From the IMG/VR virus record IMGVR_UViG_2703718840_000012: a DNA stretch of 14,266 nucleotides, one strand, 5' to 3'. Numbering within the stretch: the stretch's first letter is position 1; every line of letters starts with the position of its first letter. Under the pieces are notes generated by a model, which ran no database searches, had not been told where the DNA came from, and was given only the letters and a program-made list of their open reading frames with translations. This DNA is from a virus. Taxonomy: Duplodnaviria > Heunggongvirae > Uroviricota > Caudoviricetes. Shown here piece by piece: positions 1 to 14,266 of the stretch. The translations under genes and the position numbers were made by a program.

Positions 1-93
1 GCGGAGTTATCCCGCGTAGAGATAGTCGAGCTGCTCAGTCAGGAGTCGGAAAAATTTCACAATATCGGATTGTCTCGCGGGGAGGTGCTTTGA
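1..93 (+). CDS. 3' end of an upstream phage early ORF (partial; 30 codons open from window edge to TGA at 91-93)
   Basis: Frame 1 is open from position 1 to a TGA at 91-93 that overlaps the next gene's ATG (93-95) by one base, as is typical of the packed P2 early operon. Not in the ORF track because it has no start codon in the window. Confidence 0.35.
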
Positions 94-392
94 TGTCCTG
101 TTCTCATTCAGTTGTATTACTGAATAACGCCTTAAAAATCGCCGTTATGAAAAATGGCGATTTGTCTCTTATTCAACTTTGTCTTGATAAAGAAAAACGC
201 GACATCACTGAATCTGTTATCGCGATTTATCAGAATGAATTAAACCTCCTGTCTGATGTGGTCAATTTACTTGTTAAACGCGCTGTATTCCACAAGCAAA
301 TTTCCTCAGTGGATGAACTGACAAAATTAACGACAGAACTTGCCAGTTATTGCGCTGATGTATCCAGGAAACTTAACGATAAAAGGAGCTGA
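93..392 (+). CDS. hypothetical phage early-operon protein
   Basis: ORF-track 90..392; the ATG at 93 is preceded by GGAGG (81-85) at 7-nt spacing, and the TTG at 90 is likely an artefact. Stop at 390-392 sits 2 nt before the next RBS/ATG. Position matches the small-ORF block between B and A in P2. Confidence 0.6.
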   Translation: MSCSHSVVLLNNALKIAVMKNGDLSLIQLCLDKEKRDITESVIAIYQNELNLLSDVVNLLVKRAVFHKQISSVDELTKLTTELASYCADVSRKLNDKRS

Positions 393-394
393 TA

Positions 395-619
395 ATGCCG
401 GATAACGTAGATTTTATTCAGGAACAACAGGCTGAATTACTGGAGCGCCAGATTAACGCGGCAAGGGTAAAACATTGCGGTGCTTCTGCGCTGGTTTGCG
501 AAGAGTGTGACGCGCCAATACCTGCTGCCCGTCGTGCGGCTTATCCGTCAGCCACGCGTTGTGTTTCCTGTCAGTCAGTCTTTGAAGCAAAAAACAAACA
601 TTACCGGAGAACGGCATGA
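395..619 (+). CDS. TraR/DksA-family C4-type zinc-finger protein
   Basis: Translation contains two CxxC pairs (CEEC ... CVSC) with the spacing of TraR/DksA C4 zinc fingers. AGGAG at 384-388 is 6 nt upstream of the ATG; the stop overlaps the next ATG (ATGA at 616-619). Confidence 0.8.
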   Translation: MPDNVDFIQEQQAELLERQINAARVKHCGASALVCEECDAPIPAARRAAYPSATRCVSCQSVFEAKNKHYRRTA

Positions 620-891
620 GTATTCGTATTGAAATTGGCGAACGTTATGTCGTTACCAGTGACAGCTTTCAGTTTATTCTCCACGAGAAAAAGAGAGCGG
701 AAAGCGGTAAAAACGCCGGTCAGGAATGGCTGTCGGTGGTTGGTTATTACCCGAAATTAAGCCAGCTCGTTTCCGGCCTGATGCATCACGATATTCTGAC
801 CGGAAGCGCAAAGTCTTTTGCTGATTTAAACGTGCAGGTTGAGCAACTCAGCAAGCGTTGTTCAGAGGCTTTTGGCTCATATGGCCGTTAA
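616..891 (+). CDS. hypothetical phage early-operon protein
   Basis: ATG at 616 with GGAGA at 604-608; the 3' end overlaps the gpA start at 881. Compact, overlapping organisation typical of a phage operon. Confidence 0.6.
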   Translation: MSIRIEIGERYVVTSDSFQFILHEKKRAESGKNAGQEWLSVVGYYPKLSQLVSGLMHHDILTGSAKSFADLNVQVEQLSKRCSEAFGSYGR

Positions 892-3157
892 AGCCTCCGG
901 GCGTTTTGTCCCTCCGTCAGCATTTGCCGCAGGCACCGGTAAGGCGTTTACCGGTGCTTATGCATGGAACGCGCCACGCGAGGCTGTCGGGCGCGAAAGA
1001 CCCCTTACACGTGACGAGATGCGTCAGGTGCAAGGTGTTTTATCCACGATTAACCGCCTGCCTTACTTTTTGCGCTCGCTGTTTACGTCACGCTATGACT
1101 ACATCCGGCGCAATAAAAGCCCGGTGCACGGGTTTTATTTTCTCACATCCACTTTTCAGCGTCGTTTATGGCCGCGCATTGAGCGTGTGAATCAGCGCCA
1201 TGAAATGAACACCGACGCGTCGTTGCTGTTTCTGGCAGAGCGTGACCATTATGCGCGTCTGCCGGGGATGAATGACAAGGAGCTGAAAAAGTTTGCCGCC
1301 CGTATCTCATCGCAGCTTTTCATGATGTATGAGGAACTCTGCGATGCCTGGGTGGATGCGCATGGCGAAAAAGAATCGCTGTTTACGGATGAGGCGCAGG
1401 CTCACCTCTATGGTCATGTTGCTGGTGCTGCACGTGCTTTCAATATTTCCCCGCTCTACTGGAAAAAATACCGTAAAGGGCAGATGACCAAGAGGCAGGC
1501 ATATTCTGCCATTGCCCGTCTGTTTAACGATGAGTGGTGGACCCATCAGCTTAAAGGCCAGCGTATGCGCTGGCATGAGGCGTTACTGATTGCTGTCGGG
1601 GAGGTCAATAAAGACCGTTCTCCTTATGCCAGTAAACATGCCATTCGTGATGTGCGTGCACGCCGCCAGGCAAATCTGGAATTTCTTAAATCGTGTGATC
1701 TCGAAAACAGGGAAACCGGCGAGCGCATCGACCTTATCAGTAAGGTGATGGGCAGTATTTCTAATCCTGAAATTCGCCGGATGGAGCTGATGAACACCAT
1801 TGCCGGTATTGAGCGTTACGCCGCAGCAGAGGGTGATGTGGGGATGTTTATCACGCTGACCGCGCCGTCAAAGTATCACCCGACACGTCAGGTCAGAAAA
1901 GGCGAAAGTAAAACCGTCCAGCTAAATCACGGCTGGAACGATGAGGCATTTAATCCAAAGGATGCGCAGCGTTATCTCTGCCGTATCTGGAGCCTGATGC
2001 GCACGGCATTCAAGGATAATGATTTACAGGTCTACGGTTTGCGTGTCGTCGAGCCACACCACGACGGAACGCCGCACTGGCATATGATGCTTTTTTGTAA
2101 TCCGCGCCAGCGTAACCAGATTATCGAAATCATGCGTCGCTATGCGCTCAAAGAGGATGGCGATGAAAGAGGAGCCGCGCGAAACCGTTTTCAGGCAAAA
2201 CACCTTAACCGGGGCGGTGCTGCGGGGTATATCGCGAAATACATCTCAAAAAACATCGACGGCTATGCACTGGATGGTCAGCTCGATAACGATACCGGCA
2301 GGCCGCTGAAAGACACTGCTGCGGCTGTTACCGCATGGGCGTCAACGTGGCGCATCCCGCAATTTAAAACGGTTGGTCTGCCAACAATGGGGGCTTACCG
2401 TGAACTACGCAAATTGCCGCGCGGCGTCAGCATTGCTGATGAGTTTGACGAGCGCGTCGAGGCTGCACGCGCCGCCGCAGACAGTGGTGATTTTGCGTTG
2501 TATATCAGCGCGCAGGGTGGGGCAAATGTCCCGCGCGATTGTCAGACTGTCAGAGTCGCCCGTAGCCCGTCGGATGACGTTAACGAGTACGAGGAAGAGG
2601 TCGAGAGGGTGGTCGGCATTTACGCGCCGCATCTCGGCGCGCGTCATATTCATATCACCAGAACGACGGACTGGCGCATTGTGCCGAAAGTTCCGGTCGT
2701 TGAGCCTTTGACTTTAAAAAGCGGCATCGCCGCGCCTCGGAGTCCTGTCAATAACTGTGGAAAGCTCACCGGTGGTGATACTTCGTTACCGGCTCCCACA
2801 CCTTCTGAGCACGCCGCAGCAGTGCTTAATCTGGTAGATGACGGTGTTATCGAATGGAATGACCAGGAGGTCGTGAGGGCGCTCAGAGGTGCATTAAAAC
2901 ACGGTCTGAGAAGACCAAACCGTCAGCAAAGAAACGGAAGCCCGTTAAAACCGCATGAAATAGCGCCATCGGCCAGACTGACCCGGTCGGAACGAATGCA
3001 AATTACCCGTATCCGCGTTGACCTTGCTCAGAACGGTATCAGGCCACAGCGATGGGAGCTTGAGGCGCTGGCGCGTGGCGCGACCGTAAATTATGACGGG
3101 GAAAAATTCACGTATCCGGTCGCTGATGAGTGGCCGGGATTCTCAACAAACATATAA
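881..3157 (+). CDS. A: P2-type replication initiation endonuclease gpA (rolling-circle initiator)
   Basis: ORF-track 839..3157 starts at a TTG; the ATG at 881 gives MAVKASGRFVPPSAFAAGTGK..., which I recognise as the P2 gpA N-terminus. Length (~758 aa) fits gpA and it contains the HWHMMLF block. Recognition is from memory, not a search. Confidence 0.9.
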   Translation: MAVKASGRFVPPSAFAAGTGKAFTGAYAWNAPREAVGRERPLTRDEMRQVQGVLSTINRLPYFLRSLFTSRYDYIRRNKSPVHGFYFLTSTFQRRLWPRIERVNQRHEMNTDASLLFLAERDHYARLPGMNDKELKKFAARISSQLFMMYEELCDAWVDAHGEKESLFTDEAQAHLYGHVAGAARAFNISPLYWKKYRKGQMTKRQAYSAIARLFNDEWWTHQLKGQRMRWHEALLIAVGEVNKDRSPYASKHAIRDVRARRQANLEFLKSCDLENRETGERIDLISKVMGSISNPEIRRMELMNTIAGIERYAAAEGDVGMFITLTAPSKYHPTRQVRKGESKTVQLNHGWNDEAFNPKDAQRYLCRIWSLMRTAFKDNDLQVYGLRVVEPHHDGTPHWHMMLFCNPRQRNQIIEIMRRYALKEDGDERGAARNRFQAKHLNRGGAAGYIAKYISKNIDGYALDGQLDNDTGRPLKDTAAAVTAWASTWRIPQFKTVGLPTMGAYRELRKLPRGVSIADEFDERVEAARAAADSGDFALYISAQGGANVPRDCQTVRVARSPSDDVNEYEEEVERVVGIYAPHLGARHIHITRTTDWRIVPKVPVVEPLTLKSGIAAPRSPVNNCGKLTGGDTSLPAPTPSEHAAAVLNLVDDGVIEWNDQEVVRALRGALKHGLRRPNRQQRNGSPLKPHEIAPSARLTRSERMQITRIRVDLAQNGIRPQRWELEALARGATVNYDGEKFTYPVADEWPGFSTNI

Positions 3158-3218
3158 AAATGATTGAAATGGTTGATTTTGCTTCCACTTGATGGTTGGT
3201 ATCAGCAACTGATGGATC

Positions 3219-3479
3219 ATGCGGAACTGCGTGGCGATCTTGCTTTGGAAGCATGTCATTATGACTAATGCATACATTACTAGCTATGCGTCCGGTTCCG
3301 CCATTGTACTCGTGCAAGAGTCTGCGGCTGATGGCTATTGTTTACAAATTATGGTCAAAGAGAATCTGACCCTCTACGAGTTGGTCGGAGGGACTGAGAT
3401 CGTCAGTGATAACTGCAGCCGTATGGGAGAAATCAATAATCCCAACCGTCCATATTTCTACCTTCACGCGTGCCCATAA
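3219..3479 (+). CDS. hypothetical small protein downstream of A (orf91-like position); start may be ATG 3261
   Basis: ORF-track ORF; no strong RBS at either candidate start. Composition is intermediate between the backbone and the AT-rich cargo. Confidence 0.3.
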   Translation: MRNCVAILLWKHVIMTNAYITSYASGSAIVLVQESAADGYCLQIMVKENLTLYELVGGTEIVSDNCSRMGEINNPNRPYFYLHACP

Positions 3480-3644
3480 TCTGTCACCACGTTGACCATA
3501 GAAAACCCCGTCGACGCTGAAACTCGCTTTCAGTGCTGGCGGGGGTGAACAACGAGCTTGCGAGGCGTTAGGGATGTCGAAATTTCATATGACTGTTCGC
3601 TTTAATGCTTAACGAAGTCATGTTGAGTTAATAACATTTTTTCG

Positions 3645-5189
3645 TTAAGCGCTGTGTTCCTTGTCGAATAAGTTCACTTCTTCTGGTGTAATATCATTAT
3701 CCATTTCTTCGAATGCATCTAAATCCACAATTTTTGTTTTTTTCAAAATTGATAGTATTTTCTGTTTGTTTTTACTTTTGGCTGAACCCGGAATCCACTC
3801 TACATCCCACAGGCCATCAATGGTAAATGTTTTTTTTCCCTTGAGTTCATCATTTATGCGTTGACATAGGGCTGTTTTGTAATCGCCTTCCCATTGTGTG
3901 TGTATCTTCCCTTGAACTCGTTGAAACCAAATATCTAACATTTCAGTATTTGGTTGTTTACCTAGTTTACAATGAAGTTGTTGTAACTTGCCAAATTTGA
4001 GTTCATCGTCGTCATAAAGGAAGGTCAAGAGTTTTGCGAAAATAGCCATTCCCACTGGGTAGGTGGTTGGGTTTTTAGCCATGATGCTTGAAATAATTCC
4101 AAGCATTGCATCTAGTTGATGCCCACTATTTGTGATCTTTTTCTTCCTAAATAATTTTCGCAAGAAATCATTTAAATATCTAACTGTAATTTTGGAGTTT
4201 TGATGTTTTAAAGAAAATAAATATATTGCATACAACATTTTCTGTAGGGAGTTGAACGACTTTTCTATAATATATTCTTTTTTTGCTGATTTAAGGGAGT
4301 GAAGAATGATGTCGTCATGTAGTTCTGTTTTTCTTGAGTTTAAATCAAGCCCAAACTCACCTAAGACCTCAACCAAACACTTTGAGATTTTGTCCAAATC
4401 ATCTTTACTGCTTGAAAATATTCGATAATCATCTCTGTAGCGAACTACTTTGTAATCCGTTATTTTTTGCTCTTCAGTTTTTTTTCTTAGCTGTAAATCA
4501 ATTTCGCCTAAAATTAATTCGGCAAATGTATCCATCAACGTACTACCCAATGGTATTCCGTTTGTCTGATTACTCATCATCATCTGGATATGAGTGTCAA
4601 TCAATCGTCCTGGGTTATTGTTATTTTCTTTCTTTTTGGCCTCTTCTTTTGAGATGAATACCCATTCAAAGCTATGAGTGTAAATAGAAGGGTAGAAGTT
4701 TGAAATATCTGTGCTGAACATGAACTCATACTCAAGAGCCAATGAAAGACTTTTTTGTTCAAAATCTTCCCACCAGTTTAAAACAGATGCAGCTACGTTT
4801 GAGGTGTTCTTTTTGCTCACTGGGGTACTTGAGCATAAAAAAAGATCATTAGACTCAAACTCTCTAAATTTATTCTTTATAGCCTTCCAGTTGGAAGGGG
4901 ATGTAATAAGTTTACAAAAATACACGTAGTATAGAGGATTAATTAGTGTTATTCGTCGCCAGCTATATAAGCCATCTTTGCTGACTAAAACCTCGTAATT
5001 TATATTCTTCCCCATCAATGACTTGGAGTCAGGTTGGAAGTTGATTTTACCTTCATCTATCGCGGAGTTGATTTCTTCAAGCAAGGAAGAAAAATCGACA
5101 TAACTGGGTAGCTCCAGAGTAGTGTATGAATCATGCTGCAGAAAATACTTAAGCGCTCTACCAGTAGTTAATTCATAAATCTTTTTCAT
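3645..5189 (-). CDS. reverse transcriptase, Abi/UG-like single-gene type with ~220-aa C-terminal extension
   Basis: Translation shows RT motifs in order: SWRRITLINP (motif 2), FSTDISNFYPSI (motif A, catalytic D), NGIPLGSTLMDTFAELIL (motif B), VVRYRDDYRIF (YxDD motif C), GLDLNSRKT (motif D/E). ATG at 5189 (MKKIYELT...) is preferred; the ORF-track start at 5315 is a TTG and the extension reads as Cys/His-rich junk running into the cos flank. Same position and orientation as old in P2. Confidence 0.8.
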   Translation of the reverse strand: MKKIYELTTGRALKYFLQHDSYTTLELPSYVDFSSLLEEINSAIDEGKINFQPDSKSLMGKNINYEVLVSKDGLYSWRRITLINPLYYVYFCKLITSPSNWKAIKNKFREFESNDLFLCSSTPVSKKNTSNVAASVLNWWEDFEQKSLSLALEYEFMFSTDISNFYPSIYTHSFEWVFISKEEAKKKENNNNPGRLIDTHIQMMMSNQTNGIPLGSTLMDTFAELILGEIDLQLRKKTEEQKITDYKVVRYRDDYRIFSSSKDDLDKISKCLVEVLGEFGLDLNSRKTELHDDIILHSLKSAKKEYIIEKSFNSLQKMLYAIYLFSLKHQNSKITVRYLNDFLRKLFRKKKITNSGHQLDAMLGIISSIMAKNPTTYPVGMAIFAKLLTFLYDDDELKFGKLQQLHCKLGKQPNTEMLDIWFQRVQGKIHTQWEGDYKTALCQRINDELKGKKTFTIDGLWDVEWIPGSAKSKNKQKILSILKKTKIVDLDAFEEMDNDITPEEVNLFDKEHSA

Positions 5190-5395
5190 AATTAGTGATT
5201 TCTTCTTAAGTTGCGCACAAATAACTACCTGTTTTCTATCATGATAACGATGCGAATGCGAGCAATTCAGGAAGTGCATTACTCTGCATCGAAGCGCACG
5301 CAAGTCAGAGAACAATAACTGCCTGGCGACATCAGGACTGGCGCGCTAGTTGAGTGGTCATGCAACTGCATTAAAACCGCCCCATGAAGCGGGCG

Positions 5396-5414
5396 GGCGA
5401 GGCGGGGAAAGCAC
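5396..5414. other. P2-type cos site (19-nt cohesive-end sequence GGCGAGGCGGGGAAAGCAC)
   Basis: Exact 19-nt string ggcgaggcggggaaagcac inside a GC-rich island between the two AT-rich RT genes. It matches the P2/186 cohesive-end sequence as I recall it, and sits where cos is expected, between the old-slot gene and Q. Confidence 0.65.
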
Positions 5415-5452
5415 TGCGCGCTAAACGATGTCGCTGGCTTGCAGTTACCCGG

Positions 5453-5481
5453 TTGAAATTCTTATTTTTTTGTTGCATTAT
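5453..5481 (+). promoter_or_regulatory. candidate sigma70 promoter for the RT2 leader/operon (TTGAAA-17 nt-CATTAT)
   Basis: -35 ttgaaa at 5453-5458, 17-nt spacer, -10 cattat at 5476-5481, immediately right of cos and about 250 nt upstream of the RT2 start. Sequence-only call. Confidence 0.25.
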
Positions 5482-5527
5482 TCTTAGCGCACCAGCGATT
5501 CGCTTGGTATGCGGCAGTCAACAACAT

Positions 5528-5722
5528 TAAATTGTCAGTTTTTGCTTTTACAAAAAAGCGTCCACTATGGACCTATCAGCGAGGCCCCACCGTCGTCAAC
5601 TACGATGGTGCCGTAGCCGACGACATTACGTACGGTCGAAAGATAGCAGAGGCTGTTGCTGACAATTGTTGATGTAAGCATCTCTGCTGTTCCACCCTTG
5701 AGTATGGGAAGACCGTACGTAA
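5528..5722 (+). ncRNA. candidate structured leader / retron-like ncRNA (msr-msd-like) upstream of RT2
   Basis: Nested and crossing inverted repeats: 9-bp aattgtcag (5530-5538) vs ctgacaatt (5659-5667), extendable to ~14 bp with a bulge; a two-tier hairpin at 5591-5622; a perfect 12-bp repeat ttacgtacggtc (5626-5637) vs gaccgtacgtaa (5711-5722) ending 18 nt before the RT2 ATG. Architecture is ncRNA -> RT -> effector as in retrons. Boundaries are approximate. Confidence 0.3.
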
Positions 5723-5739
5723 CTTTGAATTTGAATGGT

Positions 5740-6930
5740 ATGTTTATGGATAAATTTAAACCATACAGCAAATCCAATGCTCCTATCACAACACTTGAAA
5801 AGTTGTCAAAGGCTTTATCGATTTCTGTTGAAGAGCTTAAAGCTATTGCAGAATTACCATTAGATGAGAAATATACTCTAAAAGAAATTCCCAAAATTGA
5901 CGGAAGCAAACGGATTGTCTACTCCCTGCATCCTAAAATGAGATTATTACAGAGTAGAATTAATAAACGTATCTTTAAGGAATTGGTTGTTTTTCCTTCA
6001 TTTTTGTTTGGTTCAGTTCCCAGTAAAAATGATGTTTTAAATTCTAATGTCAAACGTGACTATGTTTCATGTGCAAAGGCTCATTGTGGAGCAAAAACAG
6101 TTCTCAAGGTGGATATAAGTAATTTTTTCGATAATATCCATAGAGATCTGGTTAGGAGCGTGTTTGAGGAGATATTGCATATTAAGGATGAGGCTCTTGA
6201 ATACTTGGTGGAAATATGTACTAAGGATGATTTTGTCGTACAGGGGGCCTTAACATCAAGCTATATAGCAACTTTGTGTTTATTCGCTGTTGAAGGGGAT
6301 GTGGTAAGACGTGCGCAGAGGAAAGGACTTGTTTATACGCGTTTGGTAGATGATATTACCGTGTCATCTAAAATAAGTAATTATGATTTTTCTCAAATGC
6401 AAAGCCATATAGAGAGGATGCTTTCTGAGCATGACTTGCCGATAAATAAGCGCAAAACTAAAATATTTCACTGTTCATCTGAACCTATAAAAGTACATGG
6501 TTTAAGAGTTGACTATGACTCACCTCGACTACCATCCGATGAAGTCAAAAGAATCAGGGCATCTATACATAATTTGAAATTACTGGCGGCAAAAAATAAC
6601 ACAAAAACAAGTGTTGCATACAGAAAAGAATTCAATAGATGTATGGGGAGAGTGAATAAGCTTGGCCGTGTTGCGCATGAAAAATATGAATCATTCAAGA
6701 AACAGTTGCAGGCAATAAAACCGATGCCATCTAAAAGAGATGTTGCTGTGATTGATGCAGCTATAAAAAGTTTAGAGTTGTCGTATTCGAAAGGTAATCA
6801 AAATAAACATTGGTATAAAAGAAAATATGATTTGACGAGATATAAGATGATTATTCTTACTCGCTCTGAATCATTTAAAGAAAAACTGGAGTGTTTTAAA
6901 TCTAGATTGGCATCTTTAAAACCATTATGA
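5740..6930 (+). CDS. retron-type reverse transcriptase (divergent catalytic motifs)
   Basis: Translation shows YTLKEIPKIDGSKRIVYSLHP (motifs 1-2), HCGAKTVLKVDISNFFDNI (motif A), VVQGALTSSYIATL (motif B), YTRLVDDI (motif C, both Asp present), INKRKTKI, then VHGLRVDY...VKRIRASIHNL, resembling the retron RT VTG/thumb region. Start is ambiguous among ATG 5704, 5740 and 5746, none with a strong SD; the ORF-track start 5656 is a TTG. Confidence 0.85.
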   Translation: MFMDKFKPYSKSNAPITTLEKLSKALSISVEELKAIAELPLDEKYTLKEIPKIDGSKRIVYSLHPKMRLLQSRINKRIFKELVVFPSFLFGSVPSKNDVLNSNVKRDYVSCAKAHCGAKTVLKVDISNFFDNIHRDLVRSVFEEILHIKDEALEYLVEICTKDDFVVQGALTSSYIATLCLFAVEGDVVRRAQRKGLVYTRLVDDITVSSKISNYDFSQMQSHIERMLSEHDLPINKRKTKIFHCSSEPIKVHGLRVDYDSPRLPSDEVKRIRASIHNLKLLAAKNNTKTSVAYRKEFNRCMGRVNKLGRVAHEKYESFKKQLQAIKPMPSKRDVAVIDAAIKSLELSYSKGNQNKHWYKRKYDLTRYKMIILTRSESFKEKLECFKSRLASLKPL

Positions 6931-7634
6931 ATGCAAATATTAGACTTCTCAAATATATTGTCGGTGTGTCGTCAGCTCTTTTTTTGATTTTTTCGCTAAT
7001 TTCTCTTTTTGAAACTATTCAGAATGAAAAGCTATATGAGCGTGATATATGCTTCGATAGCCAGTGCTTAAAATTTTTTGCGGAAAAAACATCTGGTATA
7101 GTAATGTATTTTCAGGCGTTTGGATGGCTTATAACAACTTTTGTTACCGTTTTTGGTGTTATGATTGCTTTGATGACATATAACGCTGGAGTTAAAAATA
7201 ATAATAATAGTAATTACACTAGTCATCTGACGATGTTTAGAGAATTTGCAAGTGCTGAGTTAACTAAAAGAAGTAGCATCTATCCAGAGAAAGTTAATTT
7301 TTTTAGATGGTATAGGGTTATGTTCCCTGAAGCGCAAGGCGGTGATATATCTGTTTCGAGAGATTATCTAGAAATAATATCTAGAATCAAATGTGTTATT
7401 GAGGAAGCCAATGCACATATTACAGAGGAAAATAAAGACTATAAATATAAAACTCATCAGAGAAAAATGATGGCTGTTTTGGATGAAATCGGTATATCGA
7501 TTAGTAATGGGCCCAAAAATATTTTTATTGAGGTTGAGAGTCAAATTTTGGATTATATCGATACTATTAATTTGTCATTTTGTCACTCCTCATCAGTGAT
7601 AGAATTAAGTAGAGTAAAAAGGAAGTATATATAG
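6927..7634 (+). CDS. two-transmembrane-helix membrane protein with ~150-aa soluble C-terminal domain; candidate effector of the RT2 module
   Basis: ATG overlaps the RT2 stop (ATGA at 6927-6930), indicating translational coupling. Two hydrophobic stretches (YIVGVSSALFLIFSLISLF and IVMYFQAFGWLITTFVTVFGVMIALMTY) near the N-terminus; same AT-rich composition as RT2. Confidence 0.8.
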   Translation: MNANIRLLKYIVGVSSALFLIFSLISLFETIQNEKLYERDICFDSQCLKFFAEKTSGIVMYFQAFGWLITTFVTVFGVMIALMTYNAGVKNNNNSNYTSHLTMFREFASAELTKRSSIYPEKVNFFRWYRVMFPEAQGGDISVSRDYLEIISRIKCVIEEANAHITEENKDYKYKTHQRKMMAVLDEIGISISNGPKNIFIEVESQILDYIDTINLSFCHSSSVIELSRVKRKYI

Positions 7635-7636
7635 TT

Positions 7637-7672
7637 AAGTTGGCGGGATTGCATTCCGCCAACTTTATATAT
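7637..7672. terminator. GC-rich hairpin with T-rich tail between the cargo operon and the 3' end of Q; candidate bidirectional terminator
   Basis: aagttggcgg (7637-7646) pairs with ccgccaactt (7656-7665) around a 9-nt loop, followed by tttatatattt. Lies 3 nt after the 2TM stop and 5 nt before the Q stop on the other strand. Confidence 0.45.
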
Positions 7673-7676
7673 TTAC

Positions 7677-8696
7677 TTATAAGTTATAATCAAGGAATTT
7701 TATGACTTCCATATCTAACCATTCATTTATTGACTTTATTCTCTCCTGTAATGGAATGAGTTCATTGCGGACAAAGACCTTTGCCACTTTTTCAATATCT
7801 CCTAGTGACCCGACATTCTCCGGCTTACCGCCCATCAACTGAAAGGGGATGCGGTGTGCGTCCAGGAGATCTGCGGCGCTGACTTTTTTGATATTAAAAA
7901 AATCGTCCTTCGTCGCCACTTCACTGAGGGGGATAATTTTAATGCCGTCGGCTTTCCCCTGTGGGGCATAGAGAAACAGGTTTTTAAAGTTGTTGCGGCC
8001 TTTTGACTTAACCATGTTTTCGCGAAGCATTTCGATATCGTTGCGGTCCTGCACGGCATCGGTGACGTACATGATGTATCCGGCATGAGCGCCGTTTTCG
8101 TAATACTTGCGGCGGAACAGCGTGGCCGACTCATTCAGCCAGGCAGAGTTAAGGGCGCTGAGATATTCCGGCAGGCCGTACAGCTCCTGATTAATATCAG
8201 GCTCCAGCAGGTGAAACACGGAGCCGGGCGCGAAGGCTGTCGGCTCGTTGAAGGACGGCACCCACCAGTAAACATCCTCCTCCACGCCACGACGGGTATA
8301 TTTGGCCGGTGAGGTTTCCAGTCTGATGACCTTACCGGTGGTGCTGTAACGCTTTTCCAGAAACGCATTACCGAACACCAGAAAATCCAGCACAAAGCGG
8401 CTGAAATCCTGCTGGGACAGCCACGGGTGCGGGATAAACGTTGAAGCCAGAATATTGCGTTTAACGTAAATCGGTGAGCTGTGATGCACGGCAGCACGCA
8501 GGCTTTTTGCCAGACCGGTAAAGCTGACCGGTGGCTCATACCATCTGCCGTTACTGATGCACTCGACGTAATCCAGAATATCACGGCGGTCGAGTACCGG
8601 CACCGGCTCACCAAAGGTGAATGCCTCCATTTTCGGGGCGCTGGCAGTCATTGTTTTCACCGCTGGCTGCGGTGTTTTCCCTTTTTTCTTACTCAT
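7677..8696 (-). CDS. Q: P2-type capsid portal protein gpQ
   Basis: 339-aa ORF (P2 gpQ is similar in size), GGAG RBS 9 nt upstream, ATG overlapping the stop of the upstream terminase ORF (ATGA at 8693-8696), cos-proximal and on the leftward strand as in P2. Confidence 0.88.
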   Translation of the reverse strand: MSKKKGKTPQPAVKTMTASAPKMEAFTFGEPVPVLDRRDILDYVECISNGRWYEPPVSFTGLAKSLRAAVHHSSPIYVKRNILASTFIPHPWLSQQDFSRFVLDFLVFGNAFLEKRYSTTGKVIRLETSPAKYTRRGVEEDVYWWVPSFNEPTAFAPGSVFHLLEPDINQELYGLPEYLSALNSAWLNESATLFRRKYYENGAHAGYIMYVTDAVQDRNDIEMLRENMVKSKGRNNFKNLFLYAPQGKADGIKIIPLSEVATKDDFFNIKKVSAADLLDAHRIPFQLMGGKPENVGSLGDIEKVAKVFVRNELIPLQERIKSINEWLDMEVIKFLDYNL

Positions 8697-9607
8697 CAGT
8701 AAAACTCCAGAATGGTGGATGTCAGCGGGGTGCTGATACCGGCGGTGAGTGGCTCATTTAACAGGGCGTGCATGGTCGCCCAGGCGAGATCGGCGTGGCT
8801 GGCTTCCTCGCTGCGGCTGGCCTCATAGGTGGCGCTGCGTCCGCTGCTGGTCATGGTCTTGCGGATAGCCATAAACGAGCTGGTGATGTCGGTGGCGCTG
8901 ACGTCATATTCCAGACAGCCACGGCGGATAACGTCTTTTGCCTTGAGCACCATTGCGGTTTTCATTTCCGGCGTGTAGCGGATATCGCGCGCGGCGGGAT
9001 AGAACGAGCGCACGAGCTGGAACACGCCGACACCGAGGCCGGTGGCATCAATCCCGATGTATTCAACGTTATATTTTTCGGTGAGTTTGCGGATGGATTC
9101 CGCCTGGGTGGCAAAGTCCATGCCTTTCCACTGGTGACGCTCAAGTATTCTGAATTTGCCACCGGCCACCACCGGCGGTGCCAGTACCACGCATCCGGCG
9201 CTGTCGCCACGGTGTGACGGGTCGTAACCAATCCATACCGGGCGGGAGCCGAACGGATTTGCGGCAAACGGCGCATAGTCTTCCCATTCTTCCAGCGTGT
9301 CGACCATGCAACGTTGCAGCTCCTCGAACGGGAACACCGACGCCTTGTCGTCAACAAATTCACACATGAACAGGTTTTTAAAATCGTCGGCGCTGTTTTC
9401 ACGTTTGAGCTGCTCAATGTCGAACAGTGTGCAGCCACCTTTCAGGGCGTCCTCAATGGTGACAATCTGCCGCCACTGGCCGTCCGCACAGAGAAGCCCA
9501 CCGGCAAGGGCGTTATGACTGACGTCGATTTCCACGCGTTCGGCGGCGCTGGCGCGTCCCCGGTTGAACAGTTCACCCGACCAGAACGGGTACCCTGGAT
9601 AATCCGG
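8696..9607 (-). pseudogene. P: terminase ATPase/nuclease subunit gpP, C-terminal ~300 aa only (5' half deleted)
   Basis: Reading frame is continuous with the Q overlap and is open upstream of the GTG at 9535 back to a TAA at 9608-9610, with no plausible start or N-terminal ATPase region. About 300 aa are present against the ~590 expected for gpP. Confidence 0.8.
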
Positions 9608-9846
9608 TTAAACGTGGTGAACAGGTTATCGAACAGGTCACGCTGATGAAACCCAATGCCGGGACGCTGCGCGGTGTCAGTCTGGCTGCGGTCGCAAACT
9701 CCGAAGTCGATGCACTGATTAAAGTGCTGCCGCGCATGACGGCACCGATGCTGACCGAGCAGGAGGTCGCCGCGCTGGAACTGCCTGACCTTGTGGCGCT
9801 GGCCGGTAAGGTGGTCGGTTTTTTGTCGCCGAACTCGGTGCAGTGA
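9568..9846 (+). pseudogene. E: tail assembly chaperone gpE, 5'-truncated at the deletion junction (first ATG at 9646)
   Basis: Frame open from 9568. Ends ...GKVVGFLSPNSVQ with the heptamer T TTT TTG (9819-9825) in the correct phase for the -1 shift that makes E+E' in P2-like phages. Abuts the P fragment on the opposite strand. Confidence 0.6.
9819..9825 (+). other. programmed -1 ribosomal frameshift slippery heptamer (T_TTT_TTG) of the E/E' pair
   Basis: X_XXY_YYZ pattern in phase with the E frame (codons GGT TTT TTG); the -1 frame stays open for ~55 codons to a TGA at 9990-9992. Confidence 0.55.
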
Positions 9847-9898
9847 CGTTTCCGAAAAATCTCTCGGTCGATGACCTGATGGCGGATGTGGCAGTGAT

Positions 9899-10675
9899 AT
9901 TTCACTGGCCGCCATCACCGGCATCAATGCCATCATCGCGGCAGCAGGCGCAATGGGGGCAATCTTCACGACGGTTGGCAGTGCTGTTATGACCGCCATC
10001 GGAGCGATTAGCTGGCCGGTTGTGGCCGTGGTGGCCGCCATTGTCGCCGGGGCGTTGCTTATCCGTAAATACTGGGAGCCTGTCAGCGCATTCTTTGGCG
10101 GTGTGGTGGAAGGGCTGAAAGCGGCATTTGCGCCGGTGGGGGAACTGTTCACGCCACTTAAGCCGGTGTTTGACTGGCTGGGCGAAAAGTTACAGGCCGC
10201 GTGGCAGTGGTTTAAAAACCTGATTGCCCCGGTTAAAGCCACCCAGGACACCCTGAACCGTTGCCGTGACACGGGCGTCATGTTCGGGCAGGCACTGGCT
10301 GACGCGTTGATGCTGCCGCTTAATGCGTTCAACAAACTGCGCAGTGGTATTGACTGGGTACTGGAAAAACTCGGTGTTATCAACAAAGAGTCAGACACAC
10401 TTGACCAGACCGCCGCCAGAACTCATGCCGCCACGTATGGCACCGGTGGTTATATTCCGGCGACCAGCTCTTATGCAGGCTATCAGGCTTATCAGCCGGT
10501 TACGGCACCGGCTGGCCGCTCTTATGTGGACCAGAGTAAAAACGAATATCACATCAGTCTGACGGGCGGTACTGCGCCGGGGACTCAGCTCGACCGCCAG
10601 TTACAGGATGCGCTCGAAAAATATGAGCGGGATAAACGTGCGCGCGCCCGTGCCAGCATGATGCATGACGGTTAA
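9899..10675 (+). pseudogene. T: tail tape measure protein gpT, C-terminal ~240-260 aa only
   Basis: Frame open from 9899, first ATG at 9953, stop at 10673-10675 directly before the U RBS. Hydrophobic segment plus a C-terminal ...ERDKRARARASMMHDG tail typical of P2-like tape measures; far shorter than the ~800 aa expected. Confidence 0.75.
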
Positions 10676-10689
10676 GGAGGTGACGAAAA

Positions 10690-11169
10690 ATGATGCTCGC
10701 GTTAGGTATGTTTGTTTTTATGCGCCAGACGCTGCCACACCAGACCATGCAGCGTGAATCAGATTATCGCTGGCCGTCAAATTCCCGTATCGGTAAACGG
10801 GATGCCTTTCAGTTTCTCGGTGTGGGTGAGGAAAACATTACGCTTGCCGGCGTGCTTTATCCCGAACTGACCGGCGGCAAGCTGACGATGACCACGCTCA
10901 GACTGATGGCAGAGGAAGGCCGGGCGTGGCCGTTGCTGGATGGCACCGGCATGATTTACGGCATGTATGTCATCAGCAGGGTGAATGAAACAGGGAGTAT
11001 TTTCTTTGCAGACGGCACACCCCGGAAAATTGATTTTACGCTGTCGCTCACCCGCGTTGATGAATCACTGGCCGCGCTTTATGGCGATATCGGTAAACAG
11101 GCGGAATCGCTCATCGGTAAGGCTGGCAGTATGGCGACTAAATTCACGGGTATGACGGGGGCGGGATAA
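10690..11169 (+). CDS. U: P2-type tail protein gpU
   Basis: 159-aa ORF beginning MMLALGMFVFMRQTLPHQ..., AAGGAGG RBS at 10673-10679; stop overlaps the D start by one base (TAATG). Confidence 0.9.
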   Translation: MMLALGMFVFMRQTLPHQTMQRESDYRWPSNSRIGKRDAFQFLGVGEENITLAGVLYPELTGGKLTMTTLRLMAEEGRAWPLLDGTGMIYGMYVISRVNETGSIFFADGTPRKIDFTLSLTRVDESLAALYGDIGKQAESLIGKAGSMATKFTGMTGAG

Positions 11170-12332
11170 TGCTGGATGCGCTGACATTTGATGCAGGCAG
11201 TACGCTGACGCCGGATTACATGCTGATGCTCGACAGCAGGGATATTACCGGCAATATCAGCGACCGTCTGATGAGCATGACCCTGACGGATAACCGGGGC
11301 TTTGAGGCTGACCAGCTTGATATTGAACTGAACGATGCCGACGGGCAGGTCGGGCTGCCGGTTCGTGGCGCTGTCCTGACGGTGTATATCGGCTGGAAAG
11401 GTTTTGCCCTGGTATGCAAAGGGAAATTCACCGTTGATGAGGTTGAACACCGGGGCGCGCCGGATGTGGTTACCATCCGCGCCCGGAGTGCAGATTTTCG
11501 CGGGACGCTCAATTCCCGCCGTGAAGGCTCATGGCATGACACCACGCTCGGTGCGATTGTTGAGGCGATAGCCTCCCGTAACAAGCTGGAAGCCAGTGTC
11601 GCGCCGTCACTGGACGGAATTAAAATCCCGCACATCGACCAGTCGCAGGAGTCTGATGCGAAATTCCTGACCCGCCTTGCTGAACGCAACGGCGGTGAGG
11701 TGTCGGTAAAAATGGGAAAACTGTTGTTTCTCAAAGCGGGGCAGGGGGTGACTGCCAGCGGTAAAAAAATCCCGCAGATTACCATCACCCGCAGCGACGG
11801 TGACCGTCATCATTTTGCGATTGCTGACCGTGGAGCTTACACCGGCGTAACGGCAAAGTGGTTACACACCAAAGACCCGAAGCCGCAAAAGCAGAAGGTA
11901 AAACTGAAACGCAAAAAGAAAGAAAAACACCTGCGCGCACTGGAGCACCCGAAAGCGAAACCGGTCACGCAGAAGAAAGCGCCAAAAGTACCGGAAGCGC
12001 GCGAAGGTGAATACATGGCCGGTGAAGCTGACAACGTTTTTGCCCTGACCACGGTATATGCCACAAAAGCGCAGGCTATGCGCGCCGCTCAGGCGAAGTG
12101 GGACAAACTGCAACGGGGCGTTGCGGAGTTCTCCATCAGCCTGGCTACCGGTCGGGCAGATATTTACACGGAAACACCGGTCAAAGTGTCAGGCTTTAAG
12201 CGCGTCATAGACGAGCAGGACTGGACAATCACTAAGGTGACACATTTTCTGAATAATAGCGGCTTCACGACGTCCTTGGAGCTTGAGGTCAGGCTTTCTG
12301 ATGTGGAGTACGAAACAGAAGATGATGAGTGA
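11169..12332 (+). CDS. D: P2-type tail protein gpD
   Basis: 387-aa ORF in the U-D-ogr order with a lysine-rich KPQKQKVKLKRKKKEK segment; recognised as the gpD family (yegZ in E. coli K-12 is a fragment of this gene). Confidence 0.9.
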   Translation: MLDALTFDAGSTLTPDYMLMLDSRDITGNISDRLMSMTLTDNRGFEADQLDIELNDADGQVGLPVRGAVLTVYIGWKGFALVCKGKFTVDEVEHRGAPDVVTIRARSADFRGTLNSRREGSWHDTTLGAIVEAIASRNKLEASVAPSLDGIKIPHIDQSQESDAKFLTRLAERNGGEVSVKMGKLLFLKAGQGVTASGKKIPQITITRSDGDRHHFAIADRGAYTGVTAKWLHTKDPKPQKQKVKLKRKKKEKHLRALEHPKAKPVTQKKAPKVPEAREGEYMAGEADNVFALTTVYATKAQAMRAAQAKWDKLQRGVAEFSISLATGRADIYTETPVKVSGFKRVIDEQDWTITKVTHFLNNSGFTTSLELEVRLSDVEYETEDDE

Positions 12333-12350
12333 TGTTTTTATTTTATCTGT

Positions 12351-12379
12351 TTGTTTTATAAGGATAAATTAACTAAAAT
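12351..12379 (+). promoter_or_regulatory. candidate ogr promoter (TTGTTT-17 nt-TAAAAT)
   Basis: -35 ttgttt 12351-12356, 17-nt spacer, -10 taaaat 12374-12379, about 35 nt upstream of the ogr ATG, in an AT-rich gap after D. Confidence 0.3.
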
Positions 12380-12413
12380 GGCACCATCAACAAAATCGGA
12401 AGAGGTGCTCGCG

Positions 12414-12632
12414 ATGTTTCATTGTCCTTTATGCCAGCATGCCGCACATGCGCGTACAAGCCGCTATATCACTGACACGACAAAAGAGCGTTATCACCAG
12501 TGTCAGAACGTGAATTGCAGCGCCACGTTTATCACTTATGAGTCGGTACAGCGATACATCGTGAAGCCGGGAGAAGTCCACGCCGTAAGACCGCACCCGT
12601 TGCCGTCAGGGCAGCAAATTATGTGGATGTAA
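12414..12632 (+). CDS. ogr: Ogr late-gene transcription activator (C4 zinc finger)
   Basis: 72-aa product MFHCPLCQHAAHARTSRYITDTTKERYHQCQNVNCSATF... with CxxC-N22-CxxxxC cysteines, recognised as P2 Ogr (ogrK in K-12). ORF-track start 12351 is a TTG; the ATG at 12414 has a GGAAGAGGTG RBS. Confidence 0.9.
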   Translation: MFHCPLCQHAAHARTSRYITDTTKERYHQCQNVNCSATFITYESVQRYIVKPGEVHAVRPHPLPSGQQIMWM

Positions 12633-12644
12633 TTACAAACAGGA

Positions 12645-12670
12645 AGCCCCTCAGTCGAGGGGCTTTTTTG
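12645..12670 (+). terminator. rho-independent terminator downstream of ogr
   Basis: Perfect 9-bp stem aagcccctc / gaggggctt with 5-nt loop agtcg, followed by TTTTTT (12665-12670). Confidence 0.75.
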
Positions 12671-12733
12671 TCGATGTGGTCAATGTGTGGACGTGACCAG
12701 AAATAAATCCTTTTATTTCATTGTATTACGCGT

Positions 12734-12760
12734 AAAAAATAAGCCCGTGTAAGGGAGATT
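12734..12760. other. P2 attachment-site core (attR), 27 bp AAAAAATAAGCCCGTGTAAGGGAGATT
   Basis: Exact 27-nt string at 12734-12760, about 100 nt after ogr and 145 nt before host yegQ, matching the P2 att core as I recall it. The phage-host junction is therefore here. Confidence 0.65.
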
Positions 12761-12904
12761 ACACAGGCTAAGGAGGTGGTTCCTGGTACAGCTAGCATTT
12801 TATGGGTTATGTTTTTCAGCGAAACGGATGATAACCTTAATAAATGCAGCTGTATGTGATCGGTTTCTAAGAATTTTCCATCCGGGAAAAATAATCGAAA
12901 TTAA

Positions 12905-14266
12905 TCACTTACCGTGTGGGTTACGCGTGGTTTCCCCGGAGAAATTACGCATCAGCAGAGCGTAATTGAGCTCAAGATCCTGCGGGACCGGGAGCCACAC
13001 AGTATAACCATCGCCTGGTGCGACCGGCATCGCTTCACCTATGGCGTTTTCCATGTGCTCAAGGGTAAAGTTAATGTTGCCTTGCGGCGTCATCAGCTCA
13101 AGGCTGTCGCCAACGGAGAATTTATTTTTCACCGCTACCGCCGCGAGGTCCCCCTTGCGCTCACCGGTAAACTCACCAACAAACTGCTGGCGGTCAGAAA
13201 CTGAATAACCGTATTCGTAGTTCTGATAATCGTCGTGAGTATGACGACGCAGGAAACCTTCGGTATAGCCACGATGCGCCAGACCTTCCAGAGTTTCCAG
13301 CAGGCTGGTATCGAACGGTTTGCCCGCAGCGGCGTCATCGATAGCTTTACGGTAAACCTGTGCGGTGCGTGCGCAATAGTAGAAAGATTTAGTACGGCCT
13401 TCGATTTTCAGCGAATGCACGCCCATTTTGGTCAGGCGTTCTACATGGGCGATGGCGCGCAGATCTTTCGAGTTCATGATGTAAGTGCCGTGCTCATCTT
13501 CAAACGCGGTCATATACTCGCCCGGACGCTGGGCTTCTTCGATCATAAACACTTTGTCGGTTGGCGCGCCGATACCCAGCGTCGGCTCAACATTTTGCAC
13601 CGGAATCGGCTCGTACTTGTGTACGATGTTGCCAACGTCATCTTCTTTCCCTTCCTGGACGTTGTACTCCCAGCGGCAGGCGTTGGTGCAGGTACCCTGG
13701 TTCGGATCGCGCTTGTTGATATAGCCAGAGAGCAGGCAGCGACCGGAGTAGGCCATGCACAGTGCGCCGTGAACGAAGATCTCGATCTCCATATCCGGCA
13801 CCTGATTGCGGATCTCTTCAATCTCTTCCAGCGACAGCTCGCGAGAGAGGATCACGCGGGTCAGGCCCATTTGCTGCCAGAATTTCACCGTCGCCCAGTT
13901 TACGGCGTTAGCCTGCACCGAGAGGTGGATCGGCATTTCAGGGAAGTGCTCACGCACCAGCATAATCAGCCCTGGATCGGACATAATCAGCGCATCCGGC
14001 CCCATTTCCACCACCGGTTTCAGGTCACGGATAAAGGTTTTCAGCTTGGCGTTGTGCGGTGCAATGTTGACCACGACATAAAACTTTTTCCCCAGCGCGT
14101 GGGCTTCATTGATGCCGAGCTGAAGATTTTCGTGGTTGAATTCGTTGTTGCGCACACGCAGGGAGTAACGCGGCTGGCCCGCATAAACAGCATCTGCGCC
14201 ATAAGCGAAAGCGTAACGCATATTTTTCAGCGTTCCCGCCGGGGAAAGGAGTTCCGGTTTAAACAT
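12905..14266 (-). CDS. yegQ: host peptidase U32-family protein YegQ (TrhP, tRNA hydroxylation)
   Basis: 453-aa ORF MFKPELLSPAGTLKNMRYAFAYGADAVYAG... recognised as E. coli YegQ. The ATG is the last triplet of the window (14264-14266 on the minus strand), so the CDS is complete but its promoter is outside. Confidence 0.92.
   Translation of the reverse strand: MFKPELLSPAGTLKNMRYAFAYGADAVYAGQPRYSLRVRNNEFNHENLQLGINEAHALGKKFYVVVNIAPHNAKLKTFIRDLKPVVEMGPDALIMSDPGLIMLVREHFPEMPIHLSVQANAVNWATVKFWQQMGLTRVILSRELSLEEIEEIRNQVPDMEIEIFVHGALCMAYSGRCLLSGYINKRDPNQGTCTNACRWEYNVQEGKEDDVGNIVHKYEPIPVQNVEPTLGIGAPTDKVFMIEEAQRPGEYMTAFEDEHGTYIMNSKDLRAIAHVERLTKMGVHSLKIEGRTKSFYYCARTAQVYRKAIDDAAAGKPFDTSLLETLEGLAHRGYTEGFLRRHTHDDYQNYEYGYSVSDRQQFVGEFTGERKGDLAAVAVKNKFSVGDSLELMTPQGNINFTLEHMENAIGEAMPVAPGDGYTVWLPVPQDLELNYALLMRNFSGETTRNPHGK

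Follow-up and report, generated by a model that had tools for sequence, protein, structure and literature searches.

Site-specific recombination by heterobivalent tyrosine integrases, and by that of phage P2, follows an established mechanism that we apply here by homology. The P2 attP, the sites for Int, IHF and Cox, the ogr-D' remnant of E. coli K-12 and the use of 'cyaR RNA' as an insertion site are already known. Along the P2 attP (AF063097, 24265-24383) the order is a terminator, the Int repeats of the P arm, the IHF region and the core. Cox has its sites on the P' arm, on the side of int, and this arm is located at the int end of a prophage. The classical preferred site of P2 is the one proximal to cyaR and yegQ, and in K-12 this site is taken by the ogrK/D' remnant. 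In Table 2 of Archer et al. (2011) 'cyaR RNA' is given as the insertion site of three elements: a P2-type prophage of E. coli W, P2*B of strain B, and 'ogr-D'' of K-12 (PMC3032704). Insertion at the 3' ends of structured-RNA genes is likewise displayed by phage 186 (in a tRNA-Ile gene) and by Fels-2 and SopE-phi (in ssrA) (PMC3448106), and P2-like prophages at rybB also lie in the 3' end of an RNA gene (PMC3032704).

The window, by which we mean the whole stretch of DNA that was analysed (14,266 nucleotides), starts inside the early operon at the equivalent of P2 position 27154 and contains about 12.7 kb of prophage, including two reverse-transcriptase defence loci. Its alignment with P2 falls into the following blocks:

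Window 1-3148, P2 27154-30301: orf80 to A.
Window 5367-5414, P2 33546-33593: cos region.
Window 7738-9592, P2 263-2117: Q and a truncated P.
Window 9591-9917, P2 19450-19776: part of E.
Window 9905-12760, P2 21526-24382: the end of T, then U, D, ogr, the P arm and the core.

Pfam matches were obtained for gpA, the portal, a terminase fragment, gpU and gpD. The window is thus a defective prophage from which the head, lysis, baseplate, fibre, sheath and tube genes are missing. The whole window with its deletion pattern was present in no complete E. coli genome searched; the best match covered 89% of it and had a different att site.

Our results favor the interpretation that the segment 12633-12905 is an attR with an Int/IHF-type P arm and the 27-bp core, created where a P2-type prophage entered cyaR, a host sRNA gene, at its 3' end. 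We assign this reading a probability of roughly 0.88. It builds on sequence identities, coordinates, the match to cyaR and the conservation, all of which are direct observations, and Int and IHF would bind across 12671-12761 if the footprints given in the P2 record carry over by homology. From left to right the window runs through the ogr stop codon (ending at 12632), the ogr terminator, the Int arm repeats, the IHF region, the 27-bp core, cyaR and yegQ/trhP. The individual features are:

12414-12632, plus strand: ogr, late-gene transcription activator and final prophage gene (72-aa open reading frame).
12644-12669, plus strand: Rho-independent terminator serving ogr and the F operon, with a stem of 9 bp, a loop of AGTC and six T's (terminator scan).
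12671-12698, unstranded: putative Int arm-type binding region of the P arm, by homology to the P2 protein_bind feature 'Int, P arm' (24293-24320).
12700-12719, unstranded: inverted repeat GAAATAAA-TCCT-TTTATTTC, the probable A/T-rich upstream part of the IHF-protected region.
12702-12735, unstranded: putative IHF-protected region, by homology to the P2 protein_bind feature 'IHF' (24324-24357).
12734-12760, unstranded: 27-bp att core, the crossover region and last phage-homologous sequence (exact match to the P2 core).
12822-12734, minus strand: cyaR (RyeE) sRNA gene (Rfam RF00112, terminator scan and fold).
12828-12870, minus strand: probable cyaR promoter, with a -10-like TATCAT at 12833-12828 and a CRP-like site TGTGATCGGTTTCTAA at 12855-12870.
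12905-14266, minus strand: yegQ/trhP (tRNA uridine-34 hydroxylase), a complete host gene (453-aa open reading frame, annotated so under the E. coli genome matches).

The original prediction had placed the ogr terminator, the 27-bp core and yegQ in sequence. All three are present and in that order, and what had been overlooked is cyaR, to whose terminator the core belongs. The target is therefore an sRNA gene, and not an intergenic site beside yegQ.

The phage side of the junction follows P2 closely. The ogr protein matches PHROG 603, a transcriptional regulator (E = 1e-28), and the ogr DNA is 96.5% identical to that of P2. The terminator hairpin AAGCCCCTC-AGTC-GAGGGGCTT occupies 12644-12665 and is followed by six T's up to 12669; the fold of 12633-12680 has an energy of -21.8 kcal/mol (z = -4.6), and the hairpin is the counterpart of the terminator annotated in P2. 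The alignment of the window with P2 is gapless from ogr to the core. After position 12643 (G here, A in P2) the two sequences are identical up to the end of the inverted repeat, and they are identical again in the core; between the repeat and the core there are six substitutions, at 12721-12732. Mapped through this gapless alignment, the features in the GenBank table of AF063097, which derive from experiments on P2, take the following positions:

P2 24265-24288, terminator: window 12643-12666.
P2 24293-24320, Int, P arm: window 12671-12698.
P2 24324-24357, IHF: window 12702-12735.
P2 24356-24383, Int core and attP: window 12734-12761.

The point at which phage sequence gives way to host sequence is sharply defined. 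The core 27-mer, AAAAAATAAGCCCGTGTAAGGGAGATT, has one copy in the window, at 12734-12760, and is identical to the P2 attP core at 24356-24382 of AF063097. In a megablast of 12333-12960 against phage records, P2 (AF063097) covered positions 1-428 of the query, stopping at 12760, and a BLAST of the whole window against P2 stopped at the same base, equivalent to P2 24382. Unoccupied E. coli sites, in turn, match the window from about 12726-12734 rightwards. To the right of the core lies host DNA (cyaR) where the P2 attP has its P' arm and int, as attR should. The start codon of yegQ/trhP forms the final three bases of the window, and related genomes with the same junction run on from yegQ into yegP, baeR and baeS, with no phage-like genes past yegQ. 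Two related genomes (L005 and L007) carry two copies of the core each, with int beside yegR. The phage-host junction that the original prediction had placed at the yegQ-proximal P2 site, and the identity of its 27-mer with the P2 core, are both borne out by these comparisons, with phage homology ending exactly at the right edge of the core.

The host side of the junction is the sRNA gene itself. On the minus strand, 12822-12737 match Rfam family RF00112 with 100.7 bits against a gathering score of 47 (E = 1.4e-19), over positions 1-85 of the 85 in the model, and CyaR/RyeE was the sole Rfam family found in the entire window. The U-tail takes the end of the gene from the Rfam boundary at 12737 to 12734. 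The gene occupies most of the gap between the core and yegQ and includes the core. As indicated by the terminator scan and by the fold, the cyaR terminator comprises an 11-bp stem (12769-12742) followed by the tail TATTTTTT, with the U-tail encoded by 12741-12734. The core comprises three parts of this terminator, namely its loop, its U-tail and the 3' half of its stem. P2 inserts into the 3' end of cyaR while carrying an identical copy of that end. Since phage and host have the same core sequence and the core covers these three parts, cyaR is left complete on integration. This is the arrangement of the phages at tRNA-Ile, ssrA and rybB mentioned above, and of tRNA-targeting phages, in which the phage core duplicates the 3' part of the RNA gene and the gene stays intact. 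The cyaR case differs insofar as the duplicated part is an Hfq-type sRNA terminator, and not a tRNA-like fold, and only 27 bases are shared.

Upstream of cyaR, the CRP-like site at 12855-12870 has two mismatches to TGTGA-N6-TCACA and sits about 42 bases upstream of what we take to be the start of the CyaR RNA. A generic sigma-70 promoter scan over 12300-13000 returned no promoter. The assignment of a cyaR promoter to this interval is probable, and draws on the CRP-like site together with the literature; the site agrees with the reported control of CyaR by cAMP-CRP (PMC3333887).

Between the terminator and the core, the P arm presents two kinds of repeats. The first are the direct repeats TGTGGTC (12675-12681) and TGTGGAC (12686-12692), 11 bp apart, which fit the P2-type arm-site consensus tgTGGaCa (PMC3448106). 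They lie within 12671-12698, a stretch that aligns with the Int P-arm footprint of P2 without gaps and with 100% identity, and the P' arm of P2 holds a like pair of repeats with the same 11-bp spacing. The second is the inverted repeat at 12700-12719, whose arms, GAAATAAA (12700-12707) and TTTATTTC (12712-12719), form a perfect 8-bp match around a 4-nt spacer. Inverted repeats of this quality (8 bp without mismatch, loop of 3-8 nt) arose in only 2.6% of shuffles of 12633-12905. We read this repeat as the probable upstream half of the IHF site, A/T-rich and conserved.

Two lines of evidence point to IHF. First, the homologous stretch is annotated as IHF-protected in P2, and it contains an IHF-like element. 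The best such element in the window, TTTCATTGTATTA at 12716-12728, agrees with seven of the nine specified positions of the consensus WATCAANNNNTTR, and its P2 counterpart, TTTCAATTTATTG, agrees with eight of the nine. The decrease from 8/9 to 7/9 is due to the six substitutions at 12721-12732, an allele shared with K-12 and with several database entries submitted as phage genomes.

Secondly, the pattern of conservation among related P arms follows the IHF consensus. Loci containing cyaR were gathered from at least 120 species-level genomes, and among the 120 loci listed at least 11 P2-type P arms lie directly downstream of cyaR, in Buttiauxella, Citrobacter, Trabulsiella, E. albertii and other Enterobacteriaceae (the genera named being examples); an ogr homologue occurs within 3 kb in 5 of these 11. 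Together with the window and P2, these arms make up an alignment of 13. The block GAAATAAATCC(T/A)TTTATTTCA is kept in most of the 13 arms, with three one-sided changes, and the spacer of 7-8 nt to its left varies. To the right of the block, TTTCA-N5-TTR is present in 10 of the 13 arms, and the other three depart from it only at the first T of the TT pair. Conservation thus falls on the specified positions of the IHF consensus, and the N positions vary.

The arrangement resembles that of lambda. IHF sites of the lambda attP such as H' likewise have an A/T-rich element shortly upstream of a consensus-like 13-mer (WATCAANNNNTTR), and by analogy the element in the P arm, placed between the arm-type sites and the core, would have a role in bending the arm. 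Several IHF sites are present in the lambda attP, whereas the P2 attP region has one annotated IHF site, on the P arm. Moreover, the A/T-rich element here is a perfect dyad, unlike that of lambda.

This perfection gives some weight to another explanation, in which the repeat block is bound by a symmetric (dimeric) protein of its own, acting besides or instead of IHF. Such a ligand might be one of the nucleoid proteins of the host, or a phage factor, so far unrecognised, through which recombination is tuned. A perfect 8-bp dyad with a 4-bp spacer is infrequent in the shuffled sequences, and 21 bases are mostly constant across genera while the flanking spacers drift. The 5' flank of IHF sites is in general degenerate, or only loosely A/T-rich, and since the block is tighter than such flanks usually are, there is room for a second sequence-specific ligand. 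However, the departures from the block in L022, L034 and L073 are one-sided and break the dyad, with no compensatory changes, and the conservation runs asymmetrically into TTTCA-N5-TTR. In the P2 annotation, furthermore, IHF takes up this entire stretch and the Cox sites are on the opposite arm. When pairs were counted over the 13 arms, 97% of the cells were paired, no compensatory change was seen and half of the pairs were invariant. This result should be interpreted with some care since, with half of the pairs invariant and no compensatory change, covariation has no power to tell whether selection acted on the symmetry or on the sequence; the 13-arm pair count as such gave no evidence of selection on the dyad symmetry itself. 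Overall we regard a separate dimeric protein as improbable.

Still less probable is the suggestion, made in the original prediction, that the repeat is an arm-type binding site of the integrase. The repeat itself is present, as had been described, and it is perfect and conserved. Its place in the P arm, after the terminator and before the core, is one in which arm sites would be expected; its strong conservation would also fit. The assignment to Int nevertheless fails in several respects. The Int P-arm footprint of P2 maps immediately to the left of the repeat, and P2-type arm sites are direct repeats of tgTGGaCa, of which the window has two (at 12675 and 12686) and the P' arm of P2 another two. 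The repeat at 12700-12719, by contrast, is inverted and has no TGG core, and GAAATAAA/TTTATTTC has a single occurrence in the P2 attP region and none in its P' arm. We consider an arm-type site very unlikely. That the repeat is a chance palindrome in an A/T-rich spacer, with no function of its own, is hardly credible: short palindromes do form easily in A/T-rich sequence and the hairpin is weak as RNA (-5.5 kcal/mol), but the repeat is kept in most of the 13 arms while free variation is seen in the adjoining spacer (7-8 nt) and at the N positions of the IHF consensus, and so few shuffles contain one.

With the repeat taken as the upstream half of an IHF site, the parts of the P arm can be placed in the recombination mechanism. 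The N-terminal domain of Int would bind the arm repeats, and its core-binding and catalytic domains would bind the core. IHF at 12702-12735 would bend the P arm, letting one Int molecule bridge an arm site and the core, and this bend of the P arm would be needed for excision. Excision would also require attR (the 12633-12905 junction), attL and Cox. By homology, the attR sites all appear intact in the window. The excision capacity of this prophage depends on int, cox and attL, all of which lie outside the window.

The same junction is common in E. coli. The order ogr, core, cyaR and yegQ was found in 1127 of 5426 complete genomes, and nearly all of the remaining genomes match only from the core rightwards. 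In K-12 MG1655 the remnant (ogrK and the D' pseudogene yegZ) occupies the same chromosomal site and has the same attR, with an identical layout of ogr, P arm, core, cyaR and yegQ. In the 600 bases left of the core the window and K-12 share 97.8% identity, and in yegQ they share 98.5%; they diverge to a similar degree in the phage part, by 2.2%, and in the host part, by 1.5%. They differ in how much of the prophage is left. K-12 retains only the last ~210 bases of D, plus ogr, whereas the window retains its ~12.7 kb with two other deletions. The left end of the K-12 remnant is an attL core that breaks off after GCCCGTGTA and continues directly with internal D sequence. The original prediction, which had equated the locus with that of the K-12 remnant and called it a less decayed version of it, holds for the site and, in structural terms, for the lesser decay: the window still has orf80 to A, the reverse-transcriptase loci, cos, Q, parts of P, E and T, and U, D and ogr, against D' and ogr in K-12.

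The sites without a prophage add complexity to this picture. In unoccupied sites, the flank on the yegR side of the core, corresponding to the attL flank in lysogens, shows significant homology to the phage P arm over approximately 45 bases. When the host flank (TCGATGTGGTCAATG-GAAGACGGTGACCAG) was aligned locally with the phage P arm (TCGATGTGGTCAATGTGTGGAC-GTGACCAG), the score was 38; shuffled sequences scored 15.3 +/- 2.2, and 0 of 2000 reached 38. Relative to the phage P arm, the host flank is without ~16 bases, and with them the inverted repeat and the IHF element are gone. Judged from this alignment, the yegR-side flank looks like a P arm with a ~16-base deletion. The relic is present in 5259 of the 5426 complete E. 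coli genomes, and in it one arm-type site, TGTGGTC, survives 43 bases from the core. It could be hypothesized that the 'unoccupied' E. coli site is in fact an attR, left behind by a much older P2-type prophage and since eroded, and that TGTGGTC is still bound by Int and aids the strong preference of P2 for this site. We consider this unlikely as a whole. The homology of the flank to the P arm is an observation; any role of the relic TGTGGTC is pure speculation. P2-type integrations, and their decay, appear to have recurred at cyaR, as the comparisons of P arms suggest.

Similar but weaker relics were also seen downstream of cyaR in E. albertii, Salmonella diarizonae, Huaxiibacter and Scandinavium. 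A phage origin of yegR was considered as support for an old remnant. The matches consisted only of a PHROG of unknown function and two 'phage' records; of the latter, 720R8 is a prophage region that includes host flank and 'Phage TP' is a K-12-like remnant, and they were rejected as evidence.

In conclusion, the gain for annotation is that the junction falls within an sRNA gene, as opposed to a gap between genes. The DNA that directly follows the CyaR terminator in lysogens, among them K-12, is phage DNA. The short palindrome at 12700-12719 is best labelled as part of the probable IHF site. The presence of P2-type arms beside cyaR in several genera, and of eroded P arms in 'empty' sites, is of modest interest for the site choice of integrases and for the decay of prophages.

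On its yegR side the 27-bp att core is flanked by host DNA that resembles the P arm, the ogr-side phage arm (alignment score 38, against 15.3 +/- 2.2 for shuffles), as seen when the flank TCGATGTGGTCAATG-GAAGACGGTGACCAG is compared with the phage sequence TCGATGTGGTCAATGTGTGGAC-GTGACCAG. The flank lacks about 16 bases of the P arm, a gap that takes in the inverted repeat and the IHF element; 5259 of 5426 complete E. coli genomes carry this flank. Examples among the loci compared are as follows.

L004, 2445-2500: P-arm-like host flank
L006, 1455-1508: P-arm-like host flank
L003 (K-12 MG1655), 2722-2775: P-arm-like host flank
L007 (strain EN-1077), 3146-3199: P-arm-like host flank, attL flank

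This yegR-side sequence looks like the scar of an earlier P2-type attR. Host DNA from the site also occurs inside two records filed as phage: yegR is present in ON470606.1 (vB_EcoM-720R8), and AY639599.1 ("Phage TP") is a yegR'/ogr/yegQ stretch laid out as in the K-12 remnant. The match of yegR to PHROG 21109 may reflect derivation of that family from such host-containing records.

Among the matches listed, P2-type P arms lie immediately 3' of the sRNA gene cyaR at a minimum of 11 loci from several genera, with cyaR terminator sequences that differ from that of E. coli. Their parts are the terminator, the TGTGGTC/TGTGGAC repeats, GAAATAAATCCTTTTATTTCA and an IHF-like element.

Buttiauxella, P arm next to cyaR: L125, L084, L049
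Citrobacter, P arm next to cyaR: L121, L060, L022, L075
Trabulsiella, P arm next to cyaR: L096
E. albertii, P arm next to cyaR: L073
Further loci, P arm next to cyaR: L071, L034

An ogr homologue is near the P arm at five of these 11 loci, and the matches listed also include decayed P arms at cyaR, in L068 (Salmonella diarizonae), L103, L115 and L127.

The module of ogr, terminator, Int arm and inverted repeat is common to many P2-like phages at 97-99% identity, including Yersinia phages, pro483, 11W and S164. In these phages, divergence begins right after the repeat (window 12720-12728; query positions 388-396), a pattern consistent with exchange of the core-proximal segment along with a different integration specificity. 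One genome (H56, NZ_OZ547155.1) carries a close relative of the window's prophage, 98.7% identical over window 1-12721 and with an apparently complete tail region. This match ends 13 bases short of the core, which suggests that the two share a phage backbone but differ in core and integration site.

The remnant in K-12 MG1655 has at its left end (L003 2770-2800) an attL core that is cut after AAAAAAATAAGCCCGTGTA and fused straight to the interior of gene D (window equivalent ~12124). The A-run has seven A's in the attL copy and six in the attR copy, and its length is variable at unoccupied sites too.

Compared with P2, the window has two internal deletions, and P2 old/tin is replaced by defence cargo, with a cos site (19-mer, 5396-5414) between the AbiP2-type and retron loci.

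3645-5315, minus strand: AbiP2-type reverse transcriptase (PADLOC E = 4e-160)
5656-6930, plus strand: type IV (Ec48-like) retron reverse transcriptase (E = 2e-176)
6927-7634, plus strand: 2TM effector of this retron (E = 4e-85)
9591-9592: junction of the first deletion, P2 2118-19449 missing
9905-9917: junction of the second deletion, P2 19777-21525 missing

The two P2 breakpoints of the second deletion are imperfectly alike over about 13 bases (CTGGCCG-N3-ATCA). At the same site, strains FT130 (L005) and EN-1077 (L007) carry P2-type remnants with different deletions; int, C, cox, A, a reverse-transcriptase defence gene, portal and ogr are retained in all, and most late genes are missing in all. 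These deletions look independent, with the defence cargo preserved.
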